Shown here piece after piece: positions 2,703 to 16,564 of a stretch of 64,000 bases of DNA. Under the pieces are notes generated by a model. The model was not told the DNA's origin, did no database searches, and saw nothing but the letters and a program-made list of their open reading frames with translations. Every line of letters begins with the position of its first letter. Within the stretch, counting starts at the first letter, position 1. Source of the DNA: Parcubacteria group bacterium (GTDB taxonomy: Bacteria > Patescibacteriota > Minisyncoccia > Phycocordibacterales > Zambryskibacteraceae); assembly GCA_028286565.1 (NCBI GenBank), contig JAQBRH010000002.1, forward strand, positions 17,876 through 81,875, written 5' to 3'. The position numbers were made by a program, and so were the translations under genes.

Positions 2703-3923
2703 TTACGGGGCTATGAATGCTTTCTCTTTCGAAGTGTGGGGCTGATCGATGCCGATCTTCGAGGCCGAGATCGTCGGCATGTCCTCCGCCTTTGTGGAGC
2801 GCAGAGCCGAGAGGAGCGAGCCAAGCTTGTATTCGCCGTCGCCCAATATGTCCCAGTGGCCAAAGGTGTTCATGGCCGAGATGGTCATGGAGAGGCCTTC
2901 GGTCAAGGGGTCGAACAACATTGATCCTCTGTAGAGGGTCTTCACCTTGAACTGCGGCATGCTGCGCCACAGGAAGGGGATGGCGAAGTTTTCCCAATTT
3001 TTGCGGTCCCGGCTTACGAACAAGAAGAGATCGCAGTGCCCGCAGTCCGTACCTTTGGGATACGCCGCCGCGAGCATGAGGTAGCCGAACCCTTCGGCCC
3101 GGATCACATCGATGTGCCAGATCACGTAGCCGGGCTGAGCGATAGCGACCGGTCCGACGACCTTCAAAGGAGCTTCGGTCACGGACCTTCCGGGAATCGG
3201 GACCGCTTCGCGGAGGATAACATCCGTACCCGAAGCGACACAGCCTCCTCCGCCGGCCTGCACGTACCACATGCTCCAGAGCGAGCGATCCGGTTCGAGG
3301 ACGCTCGTCTGAGAGACCGCGTTGTGGTTGCGTTCCTGGAAAAGTATTCCTTTGTGGAAGATGTTCACTTCATCCGGCGTGGTCAGAGCCTTGATCGTAT
3401 TGAAGACCGGGTCAACCTCGCGCCAGGTGATGACCGTCTCGCCGAACCCCGGATCATAGATCATGTCCGGATCGGAAGAGTAGCGATTCGGTCCGGGGTG
3501 GGGGACGAGCGGGCTCTCCATGAAGCTCGGAGGGACCCAGCTCTGCGAGAGGAAACACAAGAAGGTCGGATTCTCGAAATTCGCGTTCGATCCTTTGTAC
3601 GGAGTGACGATCATCTTCTTCCCGCAGCCCCGGGGTCCGAGTATCACATCCGGGTGGACGTAGTCATCGTTCCCGAACGGATCGAGAGGCATCTTCGTGA
3701 GGTGGAGAGGGGTGGTCGTGGCCCTTCCTAGCAGTTCAAGATATGAGGCTGCCGGCGATTTGCGAACCAAGGAATCGATGGGCCAGAGGGGAGTCGGCCT
3801 TGGAAGCCGAGGCTTCAGCACGGGTGCTCCCGACCCGAACATCGAAGGGTCTCCTGGGAGGGAGAGCCTTTCCGGGGAACATCCGAGGAAGAGGACCATC
3901 AGGAAGAGGTTGTAGCGCCGCAT
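2703..3923 (-). CDS. Hypothetical lipoprotein (N-terminal MRRYNLFLMVLFLGC lipobox), 406 aa
   Basis: Long ORF, signal peptide with L-x-G-C lipobox; no recognisable catalytic family from sequence alone. Confidence 0.6.
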   Translation of the reverse strand: MRRYNLFLMVLFLGCSPERLSLPGDPSMFGSGAPVLKPRLPRPTPLWPIDSLVRKSPAASYLELLGRATTTPLHLTKMPLDPFGNDDYVHPDVILGPRGCGKKMIVTPYKGSNANFENPTFLCFLSQSWVPPSFMESPLVPHPGPNRYSSDPDMIYDPGFGETVITWREVDPVFNTIKALTTPDEVNIFHKGILFQERNHNAVSQTSVLEPDRSLWSMWYVQAGGGGCVASGTDVILREAVPIPGRSVTEAPLKVVGPVAIAQPGYVIWHIDVIRAEGFGYLMLAAAYPKGTDCGHCDLFLFVSRDRKNWENFAIPFLWRSMPQFKVKTLYRGSMLFDPLTEGLSMTISAMNTFGHWDILGDGEYKLGSLLSALRSTKAEDMPTISASKIGIDQPHTSKEKAFIAP

Positions 3924-5689: not shown

Positions 5690-5744
5690 TTTTTTATTTA
5701 CTAATTTTGCGAGCTGGCCAGATGGTACGAAGTTGGAACCTATT
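5690..5744 (-). repeat. Copy 1 (inverted orientation) of conserved intergenic motif AGGTTCCAACTTCGTACCAtCtGGCCAGCT...
   Basis: Core ACGAAGTTGGAACCT at 5727-5741 is the reverse complement of the 15-nt core found at 14074-14088, 14675-14690 and 16077-16091; starts at the TAG stop of the 5740..6339 gene. Confidence 0.8.
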
Positions 5745-6339
5745 TGATAAATTTGAAAGTAGAAAGTATCTTATTTCCTTCTGATTCTTTTCTGTAAATA
5801 TCAACTTCATATATGTCTTCTCTGTGCTGGAAAAAAATTTGCTGAGACCATCCCTTAACAGCTTGGTCATTAGGGGACCCTCTGTATATCTCGTAAATAT
5901 ATGCTGTTTCTCCATCGATAGTATCTTTTCCAATAAATCTTCTTACAACTTTTCCACTATCATCTGTTTTAGAAATGAGATCCAAGAAATCAACAATATT
6001 TTTTGCTGATGCATAGTAACTACCCAATTCCTTTGAGCCCAGAGGATTAATTATAAAACTCATAGTTTGATTTCCGTTTTTTATCCCTATAGACAAAAGA
6101 GATTCGTCACCTGTTGCATCAACTTCTCCTTTAGAAGGGCCGACCGTCGTAATAGTCAAACTTTCTGGATAATTAAGTTTAAAATTGTGTGCAGTGTTTT
6201 TGTATATCTTCCAGTTATCAGTTTCAGTGTTACTCTCAGTTATTGAAGAAACATTTTGTATAGAGTTATTTTTTGAAACAAAATACCAACCACCCAGAAC
6301 TATAGTAATACCCACTATCAAAATTATTTTAATTTTCAT
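5740..6339 (-). CDS. Hypothetical secreted/membrane-anchored protein, AT-rich (alternative start 6378)
   Basis: MKIKIILIVGITIVLGGWYFV signal-anchor; about 33% GC. Confidence 0.55.
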   Translation of the reverse strand: MKIKIILIVGITIVLGGWYFVSKNNSIQNVSSITESNTETDNWKIYKNTAHNFKLNYPESLTITTVGPSKGEVDATGDESLLSIGIKNGNQTMSFIINPLGSKELGSYYASAKNIVDFLDLISKTDDSGKVVRRFIGKDTIDGETAYIYEIYRGSPNDQAVKGWSQQIFFQHREDIYEVDIYRKESEGNKILSTFKFIK

Positions 6340-6523
6340 AAATTTAAATATAGTACAAAAACAGTAATCTACCAACATTGCTGGCCGTCTCGAGCTGGAA
6401 CCGCGGACGGGCTTGCTTTGCTTGGCGGGTTAGTTACGTTTTGCAGTACTCCGATGATGCGTCTCGTGCGCTTCAAAAAGTGACGAAAGTTATTTAGCTC
6501 TTCTTTTTACAATGATCAGATCT

Positions 6524-6880
6524 TTATACCTCAGGCTCTTCATTAATACCCAATTTTGATTGCATTGCCTGTCTAATCCACCATGTGGCATACGTTGAGA
6601 ACTTGTAATCTTTCCCATGGTGTCCATGCTTCACATACATATCTACGGCTTTGTAGAGGCCAAGATTGCCTTCCGCGATCAAGTCCATGATTGATACATT
6701 AGGATCTGTACCCTCATATTTTTGTGCGATCCTAGCTACCAAACGAAGGTTGCCCTCCGCAAGCTTTTTCTTAGATTCATCATCTCCTTTGCGGGCAAGA
6801 GCTTTCTCCTCTTCTGCTTTAATGAGAGGAGACCTTGATATTTCCTCTAGATATTTTGTTAGTTGAGAGTTTTTTGCCAT
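6524..6880 (-). CDS. Truncated sigma-70 family fragment: regions 1.2-2.4 only (118 aa), no region 3/4; pseudogene or sigma-fragment decoy
   Basis: [42 protein letters not shown] are hallmark sigma70 region 2 motifs; ORF stops right after region 2.4 and no downstream region 3/4 ORF exists. Confidence 0.75.
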
Positions 6881-7337
6881 AATTTCTTAGTTTATTGATA
6901 TCCGGAGTTGAGAGCCAAGCAGCCATAGCCCCATATCCTTTCTTATTTATAGTAAACGGTTCAATGGGCTGTGCCTTTCTAAGAAAGATGAGTAGACAGT
7001 ACTTCTTATCTTTAAAAAGATTTGCATAGTGCGGGATATCCTTTTCCTCAATTCCGTCTTGTGTACCATACGCTTTGAGGATTTCTCGTACTTTAATTGG
7101 AGTAAGGCCCTCAAAGGTGAGTACTTTTGAGACTTCGGCGATGACGGTCACAGGCTCTCCACTATTCTTAAAATAAACGCTATCCCAGGCCTTGATCTTT
7201 CCCCACGGCGCGGAACGATTCATATACCAGCGGGATTCGATGGTCTTCTCTCCAGTGAGGACCTGGGGCAACAAACCCCAAGACTTTTTCATGATGGCCA
7301 CATGGTCGGTGTGATTGTTGTCTTTCCTTTTATTCAT
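6819..7337 (-). CDS. ASCH-domain-like protein (putative RNA-binding), 172 aa; 3' end overlaps sigma fragment by 62 nt
   Basis: [22 protein letters not shown] pattern resembles ASCH beta-barrel N-terminus; assignment tentative. Confidence 0.4.
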
Positions 7338-7635
7338 GAGGCAGCTCTTTCACTTTCCTTACAAGCTCGTCCCAACTAGATGTTTTCATTCTCTGTCCAG
7401 GCGGAAGTTCGAGATCACAAGCATGGTCCAAAATGTCACTTACAATATTTTGTCGTTCACCATTAATTGTTAAGGCCTCAAATCCTGTGCCACAGATCTT
7501 ATACGCCGCTTCTTCGGGCGTGAGATCACCAGCTTCCTTTCGAGCGATCGTATTCTCACAGTATTCTCTAAGAGCCGAGAGCTTCTTCTCAGGCGCAGCC
7601 TCATGTACTTTCTGAAATTCAGGATCTTGGGTCAT
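7330..7635 (-). CDS. Hypothetical protein (101 aa), 4-nt overlap (ATGA) with downstream gene
   Basis: ORF in AT-rich operon, coupled stop/start. Confidence 0.45.
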   Translation of the reverse strand: MTQDPEFQKVHEAAPEKKLSALREYCENTIARKEAGDLTPEEAAYKICGTGFEALTINGERQNIVSDILDHACDLELPPGQRMKTSSWDELVRKVKELPHE

Positions 7636-7678
7636 ATTGTGTAATAAGGATGGAATTACCTAGAAAATATTTCTTAAC

Positions 7679-8008
7679 TTAAGTAACAAAGGCACTAAGG
7701 AATTCTCTCAAAAAGAAAACGACGCCTATAAATATCAATGTTCCAATCAAAGACTTTTTTGAATAGTTATCTTCGTGATTTTTTCCATTGATCAGAAGAT
7801 ATGTTAGCTCATCAACAAATAATCCTAAGCCTACTGCATAAGTAACTACTGATCCGATCAGTAACCCCAAAAGAACGAGACCAACGCCGTACATATAATG
7901 ATGAGTCCAAAACTTCCCAACCGTAGGTGCAGGTATAGGTTTAAAGTACAGAAACAAGCGTGTGAAGATAATGGTACCTAGAAATATGAGGAAAAACAGA
8001 TCTGCCAT
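7679..8008 (-). CDS. Small membrane protein (3 TM), hypothetical
   Basis: Hydrophobic segments; AT-rich. Confidence 0.5.
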   Translation of the reverse strand: MADLFFLIFLGTIIFTRLFLYFKPIPAPTVGKFWTHHYMYGVGLVLLGLLIGSVVTYAVGLGLFVDELTYLLINGKNHEDNYSKKSLIGTLIFIGVVFFLREFLSAFVT

Positions 8009-8514
8009 GGGTTAAGTATATATGAATATAACCCTTCTGTTTCAGGAAAGTTTATTTACGTCTAGACACGAAAACACTGCTGAGAATAGCGAGAGTAAGA
8101 ATGATCCCAAGTGCGAACCATAAGGAAATATCTCTCGGATGCCCTATAAGATACCGAATATTAGACAGATATTGAGAAGGTTGCATCAAATCGGCTAGCC
8201 TATTGTTTCTGTATTCATGCTCAGATAGACGTTAACTCAGTATTAATCTTTCTGTACAGACGGTAAGGTCAACACAAGAAAGTTGACCGAGGGCCGTCTC
8301 TTTATCTATGCCTTGGACAGACATAATTGGAAAATAAAAGTCGTTAATGGACCCAATTGCCTCCACAGCCCTCCCGCAGGCCGTGCATTTTTATGTGGTT
8401 GTTGGTATGCATGATATCTATGACGTGAACAGCGGCCATGACTTACAAACTATTTGATATACCTCTACTTCTCCTAAAAAAGCGAGTCATCTAGACTCGT
8501 CCTTAGATGCAACA

Positions 8515-9042
8515 TCATCCTTTCTTAAGAAAAGGCACTGTGATTGAAGCAGCGAGGATAATACCAATACTATTACTTATGAGATCAAGCCACGTATCTT
8601 CGATGGTGGTCGACATTACAAAGCCGAGGTAATGCTGAAGCACAAACTCCAGGATCTCATTCCCCACCCCAAGCGCAGTCACCACAAGTGCCGTAAAAAC
8701 AAAAAATTGGAATTTATTGATTACGACTTTGCTGTCTCTGATCGCCAAGAAACAAACAACTAAAGCTAGAAACCCTCCACAAAGCCCATGCTGAATGCGA
8801 TTTGCAAGAGCTCCATCAAAGCTTTCAACAATGAGGGCACTAAAAAAATTAAGGATGAGGATAGTGACGATCGAGAGGCAAGCACGATGGAAATCTAGCT
8901 TAGGGATTCTCTGTTCAAAAAAGTATGCAACCAGGAAAAGAGAAACTAAATAAAGAATTGGGTAGGCAAAAGAAATACCAAAAAGGAGGGAGATAAGGTG
9001 GGCGGACATAACAGTAGAATACCACATACGAAGTTTGAACAA
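8515..9042 (-). CDS. Integral membrane protein (about 5 TM), hypothetical; hairpin CGAGTC-ATCTA-GACTCG plus T-run downstream on minus strand (8482-8510)
   Basis: Hydrophobicity pattern; terminator-like hairpin after stop. Confidence 0.55.
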   Translation of the reverse strand: MFKLRMWYSTVMSAHLISLLFGISFAYPILYLVSLFLVAYFFEQRIPKLDFHRACLSIVTILILNFFSALIVESFDGALANRIQHGLCGGFLALVVCFLAIRDSKVVINKFQFFVFTALVVTALGVGNEILEFVLQHYLGFVMSTTIEDTWLDLISNSIGIILAASITVPFLKKG

Positions 9043-9044
9043 TT

Positions 9045-9398
9045 TTAAAACTTTCCAGTTAATATAAAAACTAAGCTAATAAGCCCAAAAACAAACGCAA
9101 GCACGACAGTTCCTGAAATAAGATCTTTGCTGCGGCCAATTGCTTCATCGTGCCCAGGATGAAGTTTAGTAAGAGCAATTTCGATAGCCATATTTTGGAT
9201 TTCGGTAACTACAATGAAAAACCAGCAAAATATCAACAGTAGTAACTCTTGAGCTGATAGCGGCCCGAATAAGAAATATACAGCCGGTATTCCGATAATT
9301 CCAAAAACAATCATTTCGAAACGAACAGCGAAGTCCTGAGTGAAAGCATATTTCAAGCCTCGAAAGGGATGAGAAAGTCTATTAATCCAATACTTCAT
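9045..9398 (-). CDS. dgkA: Diacylglycerol kinase / undecaprenol kinase family (DgkA-like) membrane protein
   Basis: 3 TM helices and conserved EIQNMAIEIALTKLHPGHDEAIGRSKDLISGTVVLA resembling prokaryotic DAGK signature. Confidence 0.65.
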   Translation of the reverse strand: MKYWINRLSHPFRGLKYAFTQDFAVRFEMIVFGIIGIPAVYFLFGPLSAQELLLLIFCWFFIVVTEIQNMAIEIALTKLHPGHDEAIGRSKDLISGTVVLAFVFGLISLVFILTGKF

Positions 9399-9406
9399 GA
9401 CATATT

Positions 9407-9961
9407 TTAATTATGTGCTTTCTTTTTCTTAAACATCTTCTTATACTCGCTTCGGCTCATCAGACTTTTGGTATCAGTGAGTCTGTCTAAGAATACCTTG
9501 CCGTCAATATGGTCGAGCTCGTGGAGGATCACTTTGGCAAGCAAACCTTTAGCTTCCATAGTGAACCATTCTCCATTTTTGTCTCGCGCTTTAATGACAA
9601 GTGAAGTAGGTCTCGACACTTTGCCAAAGAGATTTGCATGGGCTACGCTGCCGCATCCTTCGTATTCTGAGAAGGTTTTCTTAGAGACTGAGAGTACCTG
9701 AGGATTTATGAATACACGCAGATCATCTGCCTCTTTATCTTTGTCGATTGTTCTCAGGGAAGTCATCCTTATTTCTGTAAGAAAAATCCTTTGGTTAATA
9801 CCAATTTGAGGAGCTGCGATCCCTACCAAATTTCCATGTCTCATTGAATCAACCAGATCTTTAATGGTCTTTTTAATTTTCTTTGATTTAAAATCCTTCA
9901 CCACAGAAGACTTCCTACGGATGATCGGATTGCCTACTTGGGTTAATTCTTTGATTATCAT
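9407..9961 (-). CDS. def: Peptide deformylase
   Basis: Motifs GIAAPQIGINQRIF, EGCGS, HELDHIDG (HExxH) diagnostic of PDF. Confidence 0.9.
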   Translation of the reverse strand: MIIKELTQVGNPIIRRKSSVVKDFKSKKIKKTIKDLVDSMRHGNLVGIAAPQIGINQRIFLTEIRMTSLRTIDKDKEADDLRVFINPQVLSVSKKTFSEYEGCGSVAHANLFGKVSRPTSLVIKARDKNGEWFTMEAKGLLAKVILHELDHIDGKVFLDRLTDTKSLMSRSEYKKMFKKKKAHN

Positions 9962-9969
9962 TTATTGTT

Positions 9970-10404
9970 TTAAATAAGATGTCTATCTGACTTCCAGACT
10001 ACACCTGAGCCAAAATCTGGAGCTCGAAATAAAGCCTTCTGATCATCCTCACTCATTTTCTGTGCGTACCCGCGTACAAGCTCTAGCTCCTTTGGGTCAG
10101 TAACCTTCCTGAAGCCCGGAGAATCATAGCCAGATCCCGGATCAGATTCCCATTTCAACAATCCCTCACTGTCGTTACCAAAGAGTCTTCCGGACTGTTC
10201 TCTAGACATCCACAGATACGTCTCATACCACCCGTCTATGATAGGTCCCTGAATTAATCTGACACTTTCTTTGTCTAGCCCTGTTTTATAATCTGCTACA
10301 CTCCAAGACCATCCTATTTGTGCTTGAATATCAAATTTAGCAAGGAAAAGTACTACTAAAGCTAATGCAAGCAGGAGCAAATAAAGTGAGTGAGTCTTTT
10401 TCAT
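9970..10404 (-). CDS. Hypothetical secreted protein (signal peptide), 144 aa
   Basis: N-terminal MKKTHSLYLLLLALALVVLFLA signal; AT-rich. Confidence 0.5.
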   Translation of the reverse strand: MKKTHSLYLLLLALALVVLFLAKFDIQAQIGWSWSVADYKTGLDKESVRLIQGPIIDGWYETYLWMSREQSGRLFGNDSEGLLKWESDPGSGYDSPGFRKVTDPKELELVRGYAQKMSEDDQKALFRAPDFGSGVVWKSDRHLI

Positions 10405-11060
10405 TTCTTTAAATATTCAAACATCTTCTCTAAAGCAATCTTTCTCATAGAAGTATTGTGTTTTTCATCATCATTCATCTCTGCCCAGGTCTTTTCATGT
10501 CCCTTGGGAATGAAAATGGGATCCCAGCCGAAACCCATTTCTCCTTTTGGAGCATTGGCAATTATTCCCTCCATAGATCCACTAAAGATGCGTACTCCCG
10601 ATTCATCACAAATAGCGAATTGAACTTCAGCTAAAGCGTCTCTGGTATCTAAACCGTCCACCAATCTACAGAGTCCCTCGTTATCAAGTGTTTCCAAAAA
10701 CCATTTAATAAGAGGACCAGGAAGAGATTTCATTCCCTTAAAAACAAGCGATACATCTTCTACTAATACTGGAGACTTTACGATTTCATATGCTCTTTTA
10801 GCCTTATCTTTAACAACTTCTTCCAAGTCTAAAGACTGGATTTCCTTAAGATCTAGTTTGGTGTGAGCAACAGGTAGATGAAAATAGTCTCCAAGATATT
10901 TGGCTTTTCCTTCATTACCCGTGATGAAAGTAAGATTACTCATAGCCTTCATCTTATCCTGATAGTCGTACTTAGCAAGCAGGTCAAATATCACTGCCAA
11001 TTCAGCAATAAACTCTTCGTGTGACTGCTCTAGGTCTTGATCTGTCACTGCTTTACTCAC
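10401..11060 (-). CDS. rdgB: Non-canonical purine NTP pyrophosphatase (Ham1/RdgB family) with N-terminal extension
   Basis: FITGNEGKAKYL N-terminal motif and C-terminal EMGFGWDPIFIPKGHEKTWAEM...HNTSMRKIA match ITPase family signatures. Confidence 0.7.
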   Translation of the reverse strand: MSKAVTDQDLEQSHEEFIAELAVIFDLLAKYDYQDKMKAMSNLTFITGNEGKAKYLGDYFHLPVAHTKLDLKEIQSLDLEEVVKDKAKRAYEIVKSPVLVEDVSLVFKGMKSLPGPLIKWFLETLDNEGLCRLVDGLDTRDALAEVQFAICDESGVRIFSGSMEGIIANAPKGEMGFGWDPIFIPKGHEKTWAEMNDDEKHNTSMRKIALEKMFEYLKK

Positions 11061-11104
11061 TTAGAAAAGTATTACATTGACGCGTCTTGAGCGTAGCACT
11101 TGTT

Positions 11105-11123
11105 TGCTGGGGAGCAGGGAATC
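11105..11123. repeat. 19-bp exact direct repeat of the 3' end of tRNA-Gln (tgctggggagcagggaatc); putative att scar
   Basis: Identical to 13576-13594 (tRNA-Gln T-stem 3' half plus acceptor 3' strand). Confidence 0.85.
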
Positions 11124-11860
11124 TCGACTACCGTCGCGAGTGGTTTTCGATCTCGACATACTCGATAACGAAAACCCTTTCGATTCCCTGACGCAAGCAA
11201 AGCAGTTTGCTTACTCTCTCCCAGCAGTAAAGCAAAACGAGCAGCCCGTGCCGCTCGTTTGTGCTAATAACTGCTGGGATTCGTGCGGGATGTTCGAACC
11301 CTTGTGGCTTCTTGTGATGAGGATTTCGAGAAACGACTCGAGAATATCAGGCGGATCAATGAGGCGACGACGGGAAGGGCTTTGGCTGCCTAGAACGTCT
11401 CGAACGTCCTAACGTCCGGAAATGCAAGGTTCACTGTGCTATTCCTCGAGCTCTACTGCCTCACATTCGGTTTAAACGTTGCGCTACTTCCAGGCATTAC
11501 TATCGACCTACTAGCGGTTACTGGTAGAGGGGTCTGGGGAAGCGCATCTGCTGGTGGAACCAGTGAAGCTGATCTTGTTTGGGTGGAAAGGGATATAGGA
11601 GGAGTGTCTTCACCCTCAGCCGTAAAACGTCGTCGATGTCGTGAAGTCCTATGCGCTGAAATGACCGGACGACCAGAAGTATGGTCGCTGTAGGTAGCCT
11701 CTATTAATATGGTAGCCCCACCAAAGGCTGAGCTCGTTCGCTCGTTGCTTAGAAACACGAGCGCGGCATGCTTTTGGCAAGGGTACGCTAGTGGCTAGTA
11801 CCTGGGTAGCCAAGGAGCTCCCCTGAGGAGCGAGATGCTTGCGCATAGCGCAAGGAGGAA
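11124..11860 (+). other. 0.74-kb segment without any credible ORF, rich in hairpins; candidate structured ncRNA, long leader, or decayed gene inside the putative integrated element
   Basis: All six frames fragmented by stops; hairpins CGCTCG-N13-CGAGCG (11737-11761), TTGCGC-ATA-GCGCAA (11836-11850); ends in AAGGAGG RBS of the next small gene. Confidence 0.35.
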
Positions 11861-11863
11861 TGT

Positions 11864-12037
11864 ATGGGCAAGAAGGACAAGTTCGAGGGACACAAGGACG
11901 AGAGCTTCAACCGTGCGCATGGCCGCCGGGACAACGAGCCGTCCAAGACAAAGCAGGACGACACCAAGCGCGAACGGAATGTCGCCGCAAAGGGTAGTGA
12001 AGAGCACAGCCGCGTAGCCAAAGGCAAGCGCGGTTAG
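11864..12037 (+). CDS. Small highly charged/basic protein (57 aa), below ORF-track cutoff
   Basis: Perfect SD AAGGAGG 5 nt upstream of ATG; followed by hairpin plus TTTTTCTTT terminator at 12063-12098. Confidence 0.6.
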   Translation: MGKKDKFEGHKDESFNRAHGRRDNEPSKTKQDDTKRERNVAAKGSEEHSRVAKGKRG

Positions 12038-12062
12038 TAAGCTCCTCTGAGCTCAGTTCGTT

Positions 12063-12098
12063 GACGGCCGGCGTGATTTCGCTGGCCGTTTTTCTTTA
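12063..12098 (+). terminator. Rho-independent terminator after small basic protein gene
   Basis: GGCCGGCG-tgatttc-GCTGGCCG imperfect stem followed by TTTTTCTTT. Confidence 0.55.
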
Positions 12099-12119
12099 TG
12101 ATGATGATACAATTTTATC

Positions 12120-12716
12120 ATGTCACACGAGGCGAACATCGCACGACGCGCATCCTGGCTCGGTAAGCACGGCACGGTCACCCTGATCGAAGATGAGACC
12201 ATTCAGGGGTACCAACATGCCCTTTCGCTCGAAGATGTCGCGGCAAGCTTGAAGCTCCTTCCGGAAGACGATCTAAGAGGCCTCGCCGCTGTCATCCTCC
12301 ACCAGCCTTCGCGAAAGGAAGACGCCGCCCACCCCCGCTGGGCGGCATATTTCTCCGACTATAGTCGGAATGATATCGTCGGTCCAACAATCCTGCTCGA
12401 GGCAGTTCGGCCGGAAGTTCCGAATCGTTGGCCGGTATCTCTTGGGCCCGAAGATGTCCGGGAGCTGAAACTACTTGTAGACGAAGGGCATGTCATCGAT
12501 CGGCAAGAACGGGTTGTCCTGATTTCGAATGACATTCACGCAGTGCGGAATACGCAGCTTCGTTCCTTGGTTCACGAGCTGGGGCATCATGTCGACTATA
12601 TGAGCAACCCAGCTTCGTACGCCTCGAAGGGAAAGAATCACAAAGAGTCTTTCGCGATTCGCTACGCGCGTCACCACGCTGACGTGCTCGACGGGCTGCG
12701 CTTCGCAAGGTCCTAA
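12120..12716 (+). CDS. Hypothetical protein with HExxH zinc-metallopeptidase-like motif (LVHELGHHVDY), SprT/ImmA-like possibility
   Basis: HELGH motif plus downstream His residues; no further family assignment possible. Confidence 0.45.
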   Translation: MSHEANIARRASWLGKHGTVTLIEDETIQGYQHALSLEDVAASLKLLPEDDLRGLAAVILHQPSRKEDAAHPRWAAYFSDYSRNDIVGPTILLEAVRPEVPNRWPVSLGPEDVRELKLLVDEGHVIDRQERVVLISNDIHAVRNTQLRSLVHELGHHVDYMSNPASYASKGKNHKESFAIRYARHHADVLDGLRFARS

Positions 12717-13095
12717 CATCCGCAGAGTAGGAGAAGGATTCGACTCTCTTCCGATGCCACGCGACCGTGCTGCGTACCGGCGAGCAATTCGCTCTGCAAG
12801 ACGTCGTGCTCGGTGACGCAATATCGCTCGAGCGGTTGACTCCCCGATGGCGGCACGAGCAAGATCCAGTTCATTCCTACCTGGATCTTCGAAAGGAGGT
12901 ATACCACTTCAGACGAGGATGAGCACTGAGTCTTTCCACTTTCAAAAAGCTGTGGATATCTGGTGAGCAAGAACACGTACAATAGAGATGTGGATCAATA
13001 ACTCTCATGTTGGAGGGTGTCGCTATTGTATTTGCCAAAGTTGTAAATATGTGTCCTAATGTGGCTGGCCCTATGGGACTATGTTGGAACTTTTG

Positions 13096-13527
13096 TTAAT
13101 CAAGAGGGTACAAAACATACCAAGGGTTCCCCGGTAGCCTTTTCCTAATACCAGCCTCAATGTTTCTGTCCGGCAAGTTGTGCCAAGGATCCACCCATCC
13201 ATCTTTTACTCTTAATAAATAGTGGCCGACGGGATACTTTTCGTTTTTAGCTATCAGAGTTATAGAACCTATAATTTTAGAATATTTACCTCCTTCCTTT
13301 TTATTAAACTCATATTTTTTATTTTGGTTAAAAAACTTACTTTTATAATTTATGTTTTTAGTTTTTAGATAATTTACAATATCAAATATTTTTACACCTC
13401 TTTCAATTGTATAAAACTTACTTTCAAAATCTTTCTTTACAGTGTCGTATGGTTTATCTAGAAAATTTGCGAGACAAGCAATTCCGCAACCGTTGAGATC
13501 TTTTTGATGTTGCCATTTTTTAGTCAT
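13096..13527 (-). CDS. Peptidase C39-like (papain-fold cysteine peptidase, C39_2-type) standalone domain; 30% GC, abuts tRNA-Gln
   Basis: Q-x5-NGCGIACLANFL catalytic Cys motif and C-terminal VGHYLL...DPWHN His region resemble C39 bacteriocin-processing peptidase domain. Confidence 0.5.
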   Translation of the reverse strand: MTKKWQHQKDLNGCGIACLANFLDKPYDTVKKDFESKFYTIERGVKIFDIVNYLKTKNINYKSKFFNQNKKYEFNKKEGGKYSKIIGSITLIAKNEKYPVGHYLLRVKDGWVDPWHNLPDRNIEAGIRKRLPGNPWYVLYPLD

Positions 13528-13575
13528 ACACCGATCCTACATTTTAATAATATATATGCAAGAGACTACCTTACG

Positions 13576-13648
13576 TGCTGGGGAGCAGGGAATCGAACCC
13601 CAATTAAAGGCTTCAAAGGCCTCTGTCCTACCGTTAGACGACTCCCCA
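13576..13648 (-). tRNA. tRNA-Gln (anticodon UUG)
   Basis: Minus-strand sequence TGGGGAG-TC-GTCT-AACGGTA-GGAC-A-GAGGC-CTTTGAA-GCCTT-TAAT-TGGGG-TTCGATT-CCCTG-CTCCCCA-G folds as cloverleaf with TTCGATT T-loop; acceptor UGGGG.../...CCCCA-G matches canonical bacterial tRNA-Gln. Confidence 0.85.
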
Positions 13649-13750
13649 ATAGGCTTAAGGTATCAAAAAATCGGAGAAATCGCTATCAGTGGTACCCTCG
13701 AATCACCTGTGCTAGGCTACATCTAGAAACCTTCCACCCGGAGCACGAAA

Positions 13751-13996
13751 ATGTCGACAGATAGCCGAGACCAGGTCTTTACTACCATGTGGATTGCGAT
13801 CATCCTCGGGTCCGGGACCGTAGCCGCGGGAATCGTCCTGAGCAATTCCCTGGTGCTTGTGACGGCGGGGATGGTCATTCTTCTTACTCTCATCTTCGGC
13901 TCTATGCAGTACGGACGGTCGCCACTCCCCTCCACCTACTCTCGATGGTGGATCGGGGTATCGTTGGGAACTATTGCTCTGGCGTTCCTCATGTAG
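13751..13996 (+). CDS. Small membrane protein (81 aa, 2-3 TM), hypothetical
   Basis: GGAG 7 nt upstream; hydrophobic segments; competing minus-strand ORF is Arg/Pro-rich and implausible. Confidence 0.45.
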   Translation: MSTDSRDQVFTTMWIAIILGSGTVAAGIVLSNSLVLVTAGMVILLTLIFGSMQYGRSPLPSTYSRWWIGVSLGTIALAFLM

Positions 13997-14070
13997 CAGG
14001 CCGAAGGCCCCAGTGACCGGCTTGATCAAAACTTTTCAAAGCTCCCAGCCTGGGTGCTTTTTCTTTACCT

Positions 14071-14120
14071 AAATAGGTTCCAACTTCGTAATAATAGGTT
14101 AGCAGACAAATTTGATAATG
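14071..14120 (+). repeat. Copy 2 of conserved intergenic motif (ATAGGTTCCAACTTCGTA...), immediately after hairpin plus T-run
   Basis: 15-nt core identical to the other copies; 3' half diverged. Confidence 0.8.
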
Positions 14121-14220
14121 CATTTAACTGAAGGGTGTGTTAATGTCACAACGATTCAGGAGGGTCCTGGACACTGTTCTTTATCGGTGAGCGCGATAAC
14201 CGTTCACAGGAGAGTGGGAT

Positions 14221-14634
14221 ATGTTTGCGAAAACCAAACGTAACGATTGGATCACACGCCTTACACTTCTCTTTTCTTCAGCCGTTGCCCTTGTGCATGA
14301 GAGCAAGCGCTCTCCTAGCCAGACTGAGAAACTTCTGCTGTGCTTACAGGAATTCAAGGATACCCCCGATGAATCAACTGTAATGACTCAGGATGATTAT
14401 GCGGTGCTACGAGTGACTCGCACACACGGGGGAGAGTGGGCCAACTTCATTATGGTGGTAAGGATCGGAGACATTTTTCCATCTCCGTTAGGAAATGAAC
14501 GCCACGAGTTCGTTCACTTCCCGGCTCCCACCACGGGTTTGGGTGGGGTAGGTGGGCGAGTCTTGTTCCTTTTAAAGAAGGAGCAGTCTGCCGTAGTCCG
14601 TGCCCATCTTAGCGAAGTTCCAAAAGAAGACTAG
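14221..14634 (+). CDS. Hypothetical protein (137 aa) flanked on both sides by copies of the intergenic motif
   Basis: GGAG RBS; strong terminator at 14641-14671. Confidence 0.55.
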   Translation: MFAKTKRNDWITRLTLLFSSAVALVHESKRSPSQTEKLLLCLQEFKDTPDESTVMTQDDYAVLRVTRTHGGEWANFIMVVRIGDIFPSPLGNERHEFVHFPAPTTGLGGVGGRVLFLLKKEQSAVVRAHLSEVPKED

Positions 14635-14640
14635 ATCTAT

Positions 14641-14671
14641 AGCGACACCGGATGTGAGGTGTCGCTTTTTA
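14641..14671 (+). terminator. Rho-independent terminator AGCGACACC-GGATGTGA-GGTGTCGCT-TTTTT
   Basis: Perfect 9-bp stem plus T-run immediately after stop. Confidence 0.85.
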
Positions 14672-14720
14672 ATAGGGTTCCAACTTCGTACCACAGGGCC
14701 AGCTAGCGAATTTTGAAAAG
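14672..14720 (+). repeat. Copy 3 of conserved intergenic motif (ATAGGGTTCCAACTTCGTACCACAGGGCCAGCTAGCGAATTTTG)
   Basis: Core plus extended ACCAC.GGGCCAGC match to copies 1 and 4. Confidence 0.8.
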
Positions 14721-14758
14721 AAAAACTCCTCAACAAATTAATGTTGAGGAGATGTGAC

Positions 14759-16000
14759 TTAGATGAATTCTGCGAGCCACCGACCTTCATTCATGAGTTG
14801 AGCGACTTTATTGCCGCTTGCATCATACGCAAAGATGGAGGTGGTTTCGTCTGAGATCATCAGGTCATGGTGCACACCCGACTCGTTGCACCCGATCTCA
14901 GCGAGGTCCTCTTGCGACATGGCTGGTCCACCCTTGAGTGCAGATGCGTATGCTTCACCGAGCGCGATATGGCATCGTTTGTTCTCGTCAAGCAGTGTAC
15001 AGAAGTGAGGTTCAGTGTATTGCGAGAGAGCTGATTCGAGTCCGACGCAGGCGACCTCTCCGAGCTGAGCAGCTCCGTCGTCACGAGAGATCAGCGATCC
15101 AAAAGCTTCTGAGCCTGTCTGTGCGGTGAACTTGCTGACTCGACCCTCAGAGAACCAGATCCGAAGACCTTCAACAATCGGTCCATCGAGCACTGAAGGC
15201 ATCGTTACTCTGACAACACCTTCGGTCTTCCTCCAATCCGGAGTCGTGAAGACCTCAAAGGTTGGCCAGTTCGGCTCAAACCACGTCCCATCTTCAGATT
15301 CCTTGCGTCCACCGAGCCATCTGGCCCGTGAAGACAGTCCAACTTTGAGGTCGGTGCCTTCACCTACAAAATGGAGAGTGGTGATGCCAAGAGTATTGAG
15401 CAAATCACATCGGCGACTCAGGCTGCTATTGAAAACAGTCGCCTGGGCAAGGCTATCATCGCGGTCTGCGCCTGTGATGGTAAACAGAAATTCCCACAAG
15501 TCTTCGATCGAAGTTCCGAGTTTCTTGGCCCAAGCGATCGTAGGCACATCGACAAGGGTCCATGGCTGGAGCATTTTCATGCGCCGAGAAGTGTAGGGTT
15601 CGTTAGCCTTCATGTAGGCTGATTTGAACCCAGATGGATATTTAGGATCTACATCATCCATTACTCCCAGGTCACCATTGCCTTTAAGGGCGATGCGAGC
15701 TCCGTCGTGGTCCACGATCTCTTGTGCTCGAACGCTTACCCATTTAGGCTCGTACAGCTTGTGTGTCTCCGGTGCTCCGAGGAACATGGCGCGCTCGAGC
15801 TCAGGGTTGCGATAGCGTACATCGACCGTTTCAACTCCGAGAGCATAGGCCTCTTTTGCTAAGACGGCGATCAGATGGCCGTGGTCCTCGATCTGATAGC
15901 TGTCGATATAGAGGGGCCGGGGCCTCTGGTCAAAACCAAGTCCGTGTATCAATCCCAATCTTGCATAATTACGCAGTTTTTCTTCAAAGGACAAACTCAT
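14759..16000 (-). CDS. Aminopeptidase, M29 (AmpS/PepS/aminopeptidase T) family; true start at internal Met (MSLSFEEKLRNYA), not ORF-track start 16114
   Basis: DENKRCHIALG and HHDLMISD metal-binding motifs; SD GGAGAG 7 nt upstream of ATG at 16000; ORF-track N-terminal extension overlaps motif copy 4. Confidence 0.8.
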   Translation of the reverse strand: MSLSFEEKLRNYARLGLIHGLGFDQRPRPLYIDSYQIEDHGHLIAVLAKEAYALGVETVDVRYRNPELERAMFLGAPETHKLYEPKWVSVRAQEIVDHDGARIALKGNGDLGVMDDVDPKYPSGFKSAYMKANEPYTSRRMKMLQPWTLVDVPTIAWAKKLGTSIEDLWEFLFTITGADRDDSLAQATVFNSSLSRRCDLLNTLGITTLHFVGEGTDLKVGLSSRARWLGGRKESEDGTWFEPNWPTFEVFTTPDWRKTEGVVRVTMPSVLDGPIVEGLRIWFSEGRVSKFTAQTGSEAFGSLISRDDGAAQLGEVACVGLESALSQYTEPHFCTLLDENKRCHIALGEAYASALKGGPAMSQEDLAEIGCNESGVHHDLMISDETTSIFAYDASGNKVAQLMNEGRWLAEFI

Positions 16001-16074
16001 TGGATCTCTCCGGGTGAGGGGTGACTGGCTAGGTAATACCACAAAAATGATAGAAGAGCTAGAAGCAGAAGGTT

Positions 16075-16118
16075 CCAACTTCGTCTCACGGGGCCAGTAA
16101 AATTTTGTGCTCATAATT
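16075..16118 (+). repeat. Copy 4 of conserved intergenic motif (AGGTTCCAACTTCGTCTCACGGGGCCAGTAAAATTTTG)
   Basis: 15-nt core identical; lies between divergent aminopeptidase and VOC genes. Confidence 0.8.
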
Positions 16119-16171: not shown

Positions 16172-16564
16172 ATGAACAGACCAGTACACTTTGAGATCCA
16201 GGCAGACAACATCGAGCGGGCAAAAACATTCTATGAGAAGGTCCTCGGCTGGAAGATCGAACAGATGATGAAGAAAGAAGAGGGAGGAATGGATTATTGG
16301 GGACTCGACACTGGGGACAGCACTCCGGGCATCAACGGAGGCCTCTATGCTCGAGCAGAAGGGACAGACAAGCTCTACACGTACGACTGCACCATCGCTG
16401 TTGAAGACGTGGACAAGGCCGTTGAGGCCGTAAAGGCGAACGGCGGCACCGTCCTCCGCGAGAAGTCCGAGATCCCGGGCGTCGGCTTTTTTGCGCGCTG
16501 CAAGGATACTGAAGGCAACCTGTTCGGATTGATGCAGCCGACGGGCTGGGATGGGAGCAAATAA
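16172..16564 (+). CDS. Glyoxalase/bleomycin-resistance (VOC) family protein
   Basis: VHFEIQADNIERAKTFYEKVLGW N-terminal and GNLFGLMQ C-terminal typical of VOC fold; terminator TGCACC-AAAGG-GGTGCA-TTTTTT at 16587-16612. Confidence 0.7.
   Translation: MNRPVHFEIQADNIERAKTFYEKVLGWKIEQMMKKEEGGMDYWGLDTGDSTPGINGGLYARAEGTDKLYTYDCTIAVEDVDKAVEAVKANGGTVLREKSEIPGVGFFARCKDTEGNLFGLMQPTGWDGSK

Follow-up and report, generated by a model that had tools for sequence, protein, structure and literature searches.

The closest known system to the one described here is that of the composite islands formed by the staphylococcal cassette chromosome (SCC). In SCC and SCCmec one conserved housekeeping gene receives at its 3' end the DNA that a serine recombinase (CcrAB or CcrC) inserts. 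Elements accumulate there in tandem and in one orientation, and between them lie integration-site repeats, of which six and eight copies are reported in two staphylococcal genomes (PMC3900703). Many units lack a recombinase (pseudo-SCC), and the cargo consists of accessory, resistance or defence genes of deviating guanine-plus-cytosine (GC) content. We find a similar organisation in a 64,000-nt stretch of DNA from a Parcubacteria group bacterium (contig JAQBRH010000002.1, positions 17,876 to 81,875; the whole stretch is called the window) and in related loci, where a motif of about 33 nt, here called M, recurs between accessory genes near a gene for tRNA-Gln. The likeness is one of organisation, the enzymes of the related loci being likewise large serine recombinases (LSRs). 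The differences are that the target is tRNA-Gln (tRNA-Trp in a relative) instead of rlmH, that the hosts are Patescibacteria of many classes, that the site is a 33-nt one-sided arm with a 5-nt insert relative to its target whereas SCC uses a 15-bp shared repeat, that units go down to one gene, and that the LSR elements carry a gene for a rolling-circle replication initiator (Rep). We consider it probable, at roughly 0.75, that M is the P arm, or left half-site of the attachment site attP, of LSR-moved elements that insert directly after tRNA-Gln, and that its chromosomal copies are attR scars. Literature searches for the motif sequence and for the system found no paper describing either; the members and host range of this family of recombination sites are new, and the mechanism is an already known one that parallels SCC and tRNA-linked islands.

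The original prediction, made from the window alone, had reported four copies of a 15-nt core, three of which shared a further 25 nt or so. The exact 15-mer AGGTTCCAACTTCGT occurs at 5727-5741(-), 14075-14089(+) and 16070-16084(+), and a core copy with one mismatch (GGG...) at 14675-14689(+), so that four core matches are observed against 0.09 expected from shuffled sequence. All four predicted copies exist, but the second had been placed off by 1 nt and the fourth by 7 nt, and the count was too low, as the window holds five full copies and half-copies in addition. Alignment of the copies extends the core to the full M, with an A-rich start followed by GGTTCCAACTTCGT[A/C]CCA…GG.CAGC. An nhmmer search with a profile built from relatives gave five significant full copies, all within 5.7-16.1 kb, and no significant match to M in the remaining ~50 kb of the window. 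These copies and one weak half-copy are as follows:

5713-5745, minus strand: M1 (predicted copy 1), E=1.7e-9; overlaps the TAG stop codon of the open reading frame (ORF) 5740-6378 and marks the end of a low-GC island
9028-9047, minus strand: weak 5' half-copy (TAAAATTGTTCAAACTTCGT), E=2.3; overlaps the stop codon of ORF 9045-9398
13064-13096, minus strand: M5 (ACAAAAGTTCCAACATAGTCCCATAGGGCCAGC), not in the original prediction, E=1.3e-6; closes the first cassette after the tRNA
14071-14103, plus strand: M2 (predicted copy 2), E=1e-4; 5' half intact, 3' half diverged (AATAATAGGTTAGC)
14671-14703, plus strand: M3 (predicted copy 3), E=2.9e-11; closest of all to the family profile
16066-16098, plus strand: M4 (predicted copy 4), E=1e-7; terminates in CAGT

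The extended part (ACCA..GGCCAG) is common to M1, M3 and M4, in keeping with the claim of a longer shared region, and M2 retains GG..AGC alone. M5 begins 4 nt past the stop codon of ORF 13096-13527, and the half-copy agrees with the full copies in strand and type of position. The window copies are intergenic, as had been stated.

Homologous sites were found across the Patescibacteria. A scan of one genome per species with the query GGTTCCAACTTCGTNNNANNNGGNNAG gave 22 loci, nearly all in metagenome-assembled genomes of Patescibacteria from many classes; a scan of metagenomes with the motif gave at least 120 matches; and viral contigs scanned for the motif and for the LSR yielded nothing. More than 140 loci were collected in this way (designated L002 and so on), and 143 of them, spanning 880 kb, contain 262 copies of M. 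Two or more copies are present in 57 of the 105 non-redundant loci, with a maximum of 12 in 10.6 kb (L078). The median spacing between copies is 658 nt, and the genes between them are unrelated accessory genes. The tRNA genes of the 143 loci, as called by ARAGORN, comprise 51 for tRNA-Gln and 14 for all others. In each of the 50 loci other than the window that hold tRNA-Gln, every copy of M lies downstream of this gene and is co-oriented with it; the window and L059 alone among the loci have M on both strands. The motif is near-invariant between distant classes, whereas the acceptor sequence of the local tRNA varies.

The right-hand boundary of M is sharp. Information content is high from position -5 (A in 94% of copies) to +27 and collapses straight after ...CAGC. 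At several loci (L095, L135, L050, L081, L030/L032, L037/L080/L113 and L133) one and the same downstream module follows the end of tRNA-Gln in one place and M in the other, or else follows different variants of M, with homology beginning exactly after CAGC; in L095, L135 and L050 a flank has been transferred from the tRNA end to M. On the left, M is locked to the upstream stop codon and not to downstream starts: a co-directional ORF precedes 76% of copies, with 0-8 nt between its stop codon and M in about half of these (median 15 nt). The neighbouring genes are mutually unrelated and encode GNAT, NUDIX, VOC and HAD proteins, methyltransferases, an NTPase, NERD proteins and erythromycin esterase. 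The original prediction had noted the lack of a conserved palindrome, and an inverted or complementary partner of M is indeed not enriched within 200-400 nt of ~200 copies. Among the natures it had proposed for the motif, that of a recombination site agrees with these data, as M bounds acquired modules, homology starts exactly after ...CAGC, and LSR genes abut the junction in related loci.

The LSR family, delimited by protein clustering and hidden Markov model search, consists of proteins of 490-630 aa with Resolvase, Recombinase and Zn_ribbon_recom domains. It shares this architecture, and the position of the integrase gene beside an attachment junction, with the integrases of phages and integrative conjugative elements (ICEs) such as A118/LI, Bxb1 and phiC31. 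A search at E<=1e-30 gave at least 2812 homologues, and the named sources are all Patescibacteria. An LSR gene lies next to the junction in L003, L077, L120, L132, L143 and L146-L161. For five proteins the C-terminal coding end reaches the junction and reads through it on the opposite strand, the junction partner being tRNA-Gln in L003, L077 and L120, tRNA-Ser in L132 and a copy of M in L143. As an independent test, loci were collected by LSR homology only and then examined for tRNAs and for M. In four independent elements (L146/147, L151/152, L156/157 and L158) the LSR abuts tRNA-Gln, and a single strong M (E 1e-7 to 1e-11) is found in the same orientation at the far end, 4.5-6.7 kb off. One of these elements forms, by alignment, an occupied site for which an empty counterpart is available. 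In L019 the tRNA end (T) is followed directly by X-T', where X is a non-coding element that ends in T', a duplicate of the tRNA end; in L158, T is followed by P'-LSR...M and then by X-T', P' being the end of the element that borders the tRNA. In L015 the order is tRNA fragment, truncated LSR, cargo and M, which is direct evidence of decay. The original prediction had called for a search for an associated recombinase elsewhere in the genome; the link to tRNA-Gln and the kind of enzyme, a serine integrase, were not visible to it. No LSR is present in the 64-kb window, and LSRs occupy the junction in the related loci.

The intact elements share further features. A rolling-circle replication initiator (REP_ORF2-G2P, Phage_CRI or RepSA-like) is encoded directly upstream of the LSR in most of them (L003 3410-4156, L120 2036-2854, L077 1575-2615, L146 9267-10004, L151 9270-10004 and L160 8972-9988), and in this arrangement the elements resemble integrative rolling-circle plasmids or inovirus-like and pSAM2-like elements. 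Their cargo is largely defence (ThsB-TIR, DpnI, Mrr, a BsaWI restriction-modification system, SduA and zeta toxin). P' is conserved (…TTTTTRGG…), is also coding, and is weakly symmetric to M. L146 contains a second LSR that abuts M, which indicates that elements stand in tandem. This protein belongs to a longer subfamily (~600-630 aa) encoded beside an SDH-protease gene (L146/L147 3239-5173(+) and L143 1352-3247(-)), in which the coding end of the LSR abuts a copy of M and not a tRNA; from this position, the element of the longer LSR appears to target the attR of a first element. In L160/L161 the LSR (9989-11497(+)) lies at tRNA-Trp (11449-11520(-)) with the arm GGTTCCAACATCTACCCACAAGGCCCGC, the end of which matches tRNA-Trp (...GCCCGC) and is again 5 nt longer. 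The distal arms of L160/L161, at 3154-3171 and 1075-1090, keep GGTTCCAAC, and their 3' part matches tRNA-Trp. These arms suggest that the LSR family retargets to other tRNAs by altering the inner part of the arm.

The relation of M to the tRNA end parallels that between the two attachment sites of known serine integrases. These enzymes make the same inner contacts (positions 1-12) on attP and attB, and the motif for the zinc-ribbon domain (ZD) lies at 16-24 in attP and at 11-19 in attB, a shift of 5 bp (PMC3783163). The end of the T stem and the T loop of tRNA-Gln have their counterpart in GGTTC.AA of M, and the 3' strand of the T stem, the 3' strand of the acceptor and the discriminator have theirs in CCCAGACGGCCAGC, with five additional nt between these two parts of M. 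Counted from GGTTC to CAGC, M has 28 nt and tRNA-Gln 23, a difference of 5 nt. These lengths are comparable to those of known arms (~25-28 bp for P and ~20-23 bp for B), where attP and attB likewise agree over the inner 12 bp and attP has its distal motif displaced outward by 5 bp. Counting from the centre, positions 1-12 of M have 60% identity to the tRNA-Gln end in register, compared with 25-32% off register and ~30% for most other tRNAs. CAGC ends 40 of 45 tRNA-Gln genes, and M has G in 94% and C in 81% of copies at the corresponding positions. Because of the identity over the inner 12 positions and the 5-bp-shifted distal motif, M is best read as a P arm and the tRNA end as a B arm.

By this assignment the last ~23 nt of tRNA-Gln (T) would serve as the B arm of attB, with the native X flank as its other side, and attP would consist of M and P', for example AGTTCCAACTTCGTACCATACAGCTAGC joined to ATTTGCGAAAAAGTACCGTTTTTGGGTGC. 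Integration directly after the tRNA 3' end would yield the order tRNA, P'-LSR...cargo...M, old flank, in which the junction of T and P' would be attL and that of M and the flank attR. The crossover is predicted at the GC of ...CAGC; were this dinucleotide central, the distal motif would be TTCCAACTT at 16-24 in M and TTCGA.TCC at 11-19 in tRNA-Gln. Repeated integration at the tRNA, at T' duplicates and at existing M sites would build tandem arrays downstream of the tRNA, and later loss of the LSR and replication genes would leave cargo modules between co-oriented copies of M. From the order of the integration product, each chromosomal M would be an attR with a conserved P arm and a variable B' side, for which an absence of information past CAGC is expected. 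The P-arm reading accounts for the asymmetry of M, its sharp boundary, its variable right side, the orientation rule and the likeness to the tRNA.

Several observations weigh against this interpretation or limit it. Dyad symmetry is usual for serine-integrase attachment sites. Known sites of the phage and ICE integrases are pseudo-palindromic with both half-sites recognisable, whereas here conservation is confined to the left arms and does not extend to the right half-sites, and the M copies examined showed no dyad symmetry. Those integrases mostly target protein-coding genes; here, no recombination directionality factor was identified, and the assignment of the attachment sites is read from sequence. 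For the 9-nt distal motif, a shift of 10 gives about as good a match to the tRNA as a shift of 5 (0.56 and 0.49), so that the 5-bp shift rests mainly on the GGTTC anchor and the difference in length. No LSR gene or fragment was found in the 64-kb window, no excised circle with M joined to P' was observed, and the data contain no pairs with the same upstream gene and M but a different downstream sequence, which would bracket the crossover. In L132 the LSR lies at tRNA-Ser, yet the M copies are of the Gln type; the sequence after tRNA-Ser, from the C-terminal region of the LSR, is present as an inverted duplicate (6280-6360 and 8720-8797), and there is an inverted overlap between contigs (L132 1-105 and L145 5461-5565), an arrangement that may reflect an inversion or a misassembly. 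Finally, arrays reach 12 copies at the median spacing of 658 nt with one intact gene each, often with its own promoter. A strict attP x attB logic explains such tidy single-gene arrays poorly; either decay has been remarkably tidy or short cassettes move by themselves.

The second of these options amounts to a refinement of the P-arm reading, in which a gene and its M form an independently mobile unit that an LSR acting in trans moves by way of one specific half-site (T, T' or M). We regard this as possible but doubtful. It would make the arrays a counterpart of integrons, which they resemble in several ways: co-oriented rows of mostly single-gene, unrelated cassettes each end in a site, here with up to 12 copies and a single intact ORF in each unit; the stop codon is touched or overlapped by the site, as at attC, and in about half of the units it is 0-8 nt ahead of M; arrays start and finish with a site, giving n genes and n+1 sites; variants are homogeneous within a genome, M being more similar within than between loci at positions 18, 20, 23 and 24; GNAT, NUDIX, VOC and methyltransferase cargo is typical of integrons; and one array has X-T' modules in two places, behind T and behind M. 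An IntI-type tyrosine integrase is absent from the 143 loci, however, M is a linear conserved sequence whereas attC is a structured imperfect palindrome with R'' and R' boxes, and the anchor is a tRNA in place of an attI with its Pc promoter, many cassettes here apparently having promoters of their own. An attC-like palindrome was considered and rejected, as it is local to L095 and inverted partners are not generally enriched. Against independent mobility, the cassette starts show no conservation from which a second half-site might be made up, no circular cassette was seen, and a search for one identical cassette in two array positions, cleanly bounded left and right, found none; moreover, serine integrases normally refuse attR or attL (PMC3783163). 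A target-site duplication of the CRISPR or casposon type was also rejected, since identical non-coding modules follow different sites and M does not equal T. Single-strand transposition of the HUH/IS200 type was set aside for want of a Y1 transposase homologue and of hairpins, and DNA uptake sequences, Ter, dif/Xer sites, shufflons and diversity-generating retroelements on grounds of distribution, orientation or lack of symmetry.

Other explanations would do without recombination by an LSR, and we consider all of them improbable. One places the function of M in RNA: as a mimic of the tRNA 3' end in polycistronic transcripts led by tRNA-Gln, M would punctuate, process or stabilise the upstream mRNA. 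The tight coupling to the upstream stop codon, the likeness to the 3' half of the tRNA and the folding of X-T' into an acceptor-like stem would suit such a role, and co-transcription is implied by a first gene that often begins 18-22 nt past the tRNA. M nevertheless lacks a partner strand for an acceptor-like helix, the sole possible small hairpin (positions 14/23 and 14/18) shows no covariation, Rfam searches of the window and eight related loci returned tRNAs only, ~15% of copies come after a divergent gene, and the adjacency of the LSRs and the empty/occupied pair are left unexplained. The small RNA suggested by the original prediction, which had named folding and covariation as a check, is not supported by the same results. 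The prediction had also listed a regulator binding site and named a fixed spacing to gene starts as the mark of ordinary regulatory sequence. An alternative-sigma or phage-type promoter, an operator or an upstream activating site for the downstream gene would be consistent with the co-directional start that follows 58% of copies (median 56 nt) and with the extended -10 box found right after the site in some loci, such as tcgtaaaattggtataat in L081. The spacing to the start is broad, however (5-289 nt); 34 of 177 copies (19%), M1 and M3 of the window included, face a convergent gene; 23% lack any gene within 300 nt; M has no -10-like element of its own; the significant copies of the window are confined to 5.7-16.1 kb of 64 kb; and the strict linkage to tRNA-Gln is left without explanation. 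A transcriptional signal is very unlikely, and sigma-54, extracytoplasmic-function, Bacteroidetes-type and phage-type promoters were rejected for the spacing and for the copies that face convergent genes. We think it just as improbable that the copies are functionless relics, either partial tRNA-Gln copies decaying in islands of tyrosine integrases or a selfish repeat resembling repetitive extragenic palindromes (REPs) or miniature inverted-repeat transposable elements (MITEs), as the original prediction had also offered. Genuine partial copies of the tRNA (T') are indeed present in 13 of 46 arrays, and partial-tRNA arrays beside tRNA genes are known from the tycheposon islands of Prochlorococcus (bioRxiv 10.1101/2020.12.28.424599). 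Those islands share with the present loci the serial integration at the 3' end of a tRNA, which displaces older elements outward, the cargo arrays with repeats between, the commonness of degenerate remnants devoid of an integrase, and streamlined host genomes without classical mobile elements. They differ in using tyrosine recombinases and true partial tRNAs, whereas here the recombinase is a serine recombinase and the repeat would be the element's own arm. No tyrosine-recombinase signature or XerD homologue was found among 4815 ORFs of the 143 loci. M also keeps its near-invariance across classes in which the local acceptor varies, and it always carries the 5-nt insert and the TTCCAAC 'loop', which are absent from every tRNA-Gln here. 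Nor does it match REPs or MITEs, having no palindrome and no terminal inverted repeats, and occurring only downstream of tRNA-Gln, not dispersed over the genome. The P-arm reading remains the one we prefer, and the original prediction was partly supported, namely in its picture of a recombination site with cassettes.

The arrays contain two further kinds of non-coding module beside M. T', an exact 14-20-nt duplicate of the tRNA end, lies 156-190 nt downstream. Unlike M, which differs from every local tRNA, it repeats the 3' part of the tRNA beside it without a change. The X element (150-190 nt) directly follows tRNA-Gln in about a quarter of arrays and ends in T'; it was noted in the window, L002, L014, L019, L069, L095, L119, L121, L126 and L158. 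It folds at -67 to -105 kcal/mol; in the stem that closes it, T' is paired with a duplicated tRNA 5' acceptor strand, and this stem co-varies with the tRNA of the locus. X belongs to no Rfam family. Its position suggests that it is the native B' side of the site, and it may serve as a decoy or a second attB, take part in processing, or be a scar. The S element (~95-117 nt, non-coding) starts with GCGC.C.AG.CGC.TCGA and ends in a 23-nt site, GGTTC.AGC.CGAG.CGGCCAGC, which has the 3' end of M with the spacing of the tRNA. It holds an internal direct repeat, is in tandem in some cases, and has homologues in L019 (~1340-1465), L093 (~1970-2095 and ~2795-2920), L115 and L139.

The array of the window is laid out as follows, in addition to the copies of M given above:

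5740-11060, minus strand: low-GC (40%) cargo operon encoding Ham1/ITPase, peptide deformylase, a diacylglycerol kinase-like protein, a truncated sigma-70, a PsbP-like protein and hypothetical proteins
6380-6523, minus strand: S element, conserved and non-coding, ending in a 23-nt site variant of tRNA length, GGTTCCAGCTCGAGACGGCCAGC (6380-6402); left edge of the PsbP-like cassette
11106-11122, minus strand: T', exact 17-nt direct repeat of the tRNA-Gln 3' end (ATTCCCTGCTCCCCAGC), directly upstream of the low-GC operon
11123-11270, minus strand: X element, structured and non-coding, fold -78.6 kcal/mol; homologues directly after tRNA-Gln in 8 other loci
11271-11300, minus strand: degenerate site like a tRNA 3' end by sequence comparison, GGTTCGAACATCCCGCACGAATCCCAGCAG
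11301-13063, no strand assigned: segment of 1.8 kb and 54% GC between M5 and the degenerate tRNA-like site, presumed cargo or remnant
13096-13527, minus strand: cargo ORF of 143 aa with a weak peptidase C39-like match, 32% GC; the sole gene between the tRNA and M5
13577-13648, minus strand: tRNA-Gln (UUG), by ARAGORN and Rfam; anchor of the array, its 3' end GGTTCGATTCCCTGCTCCCCAGC being the proposed B arm of attB
14221-14634, plus strand: orphan ORF of 137 aa, a single-gene cassette flanked by M2 and M3
14759-16003, minus strand: peptidase M29 gene (Pfam E=2e-97), in reverse orientation between M3 and M4
16172-16564, plus strand: glyoxalase/VOC gene downstream of M4, with no later copy of M

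The cassette formed by two direct copies around ORF 14221-14634 was correctly described in the original prediction, as was the position of copy 1 at a break in composition, M1 ending an operon of 40% GC in a genome of 53%. T' precedes this operon and M1 ends it, so that the composition island is bounded by T' and M1. The cassettes of the window span 31-42% GC, with 31% for the PsbP-like and 32% for the C39-like cassette. In the segment 11301-13063, where no recombinase homologue was found, the ORF 12120-12716(+) carries an HExxH motif. The sigma-70 ORF (6524-6880(-), 118 aa) has regions 1.2 and 2 alone and overlaps an ORF of 172 aa without a Pfam match (6819-7337(-)); the two are probably a decayed or frameshifted gene in the low-GC cargo. 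The public call for the M29 peptidase (14759-16114(-), 451 aa) extends across M4, and since the Pfam match begins at an internal Met, the called start is probably over-extended.

M5 and M1 conform to the tRNA rule; M2-M4, on the opposite strand, lie on the other side of the tRNA. The presence of M on both sides would follow from a single inversion of about 5.7-13.65 kb. Re-inverting ~5690-13700 places all five copies of M and T' downstream of the tRNA and co-oriented with it, and restores the canonical order of dnaX, tRNA-Gln and array; dnaX, at 1633-2676 in the window, precedes tRNA-Gln in 16 other loci. The apparent inversion may be genuine or an assembly artefact, the latter because the only other assembly, a Logan contig from the same sample, starts inside the tRNA at ~13622. 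A search for close relatives of the window found it in sample SRR13312974 only. The array of the window is best read as a decayed one, LSR-less and with low-GC foreign cargo.

Three other features were observed in or beside the arrays. Genes for GIY-YIG proteins of ~80-100 aa are present at 13 non-redundant loci, often immediately up- or downstream of tRNA-Gln (for example L013 5975-6271, L026 8602-8877, L050 531-1307, L052 262-964 and L117 4577-4813), one of them fused to an AAA kinase-like domain. A GIY-YIG homing endonuclease was considered as a mobiliser, but the proteins are without DNA-binding domains and vary in position, and were treated as cargo. Within 30 nt after tRNA-Gln genes that encode CCA, L031, L033, L043 and L136 have the sequence TTGAG(G/A)NA(G/T)GTTC(T/G)G.(T)GTCC(G)AG, which may be the junction of another element family. 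L095 contains an S-adenosylmethionine riboswitch (S box) beside the array at 3070-3173(+), above the Rfam gathering threshold.

Patescibacteria have tiny genomes and few recognised mobile elements, and their gene acquisition is poorly understood. The data presented here point to one hot spot used across the superphylum, the 3' end of tRNA-Gln, which receives defence and accessory genes by way of serine integrases, and the 33-nt arm offers an easy way to mark where acquired DNA begins or ends in metagenome-assembled genomes. If the assignment of the attachment sites is true, it would supply attP/attB pairs and a natural landing pad for a group with hardly any genetic tools, as well as new serine integrases for genome engineering. 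If cassettes are mobile in trans, the arrays would be a serine-recombinase analogue of the integron and the main platform of gene capture in the Patescibacteria, and the structured non-coding modules (X-T' and S) would be further mobile units.

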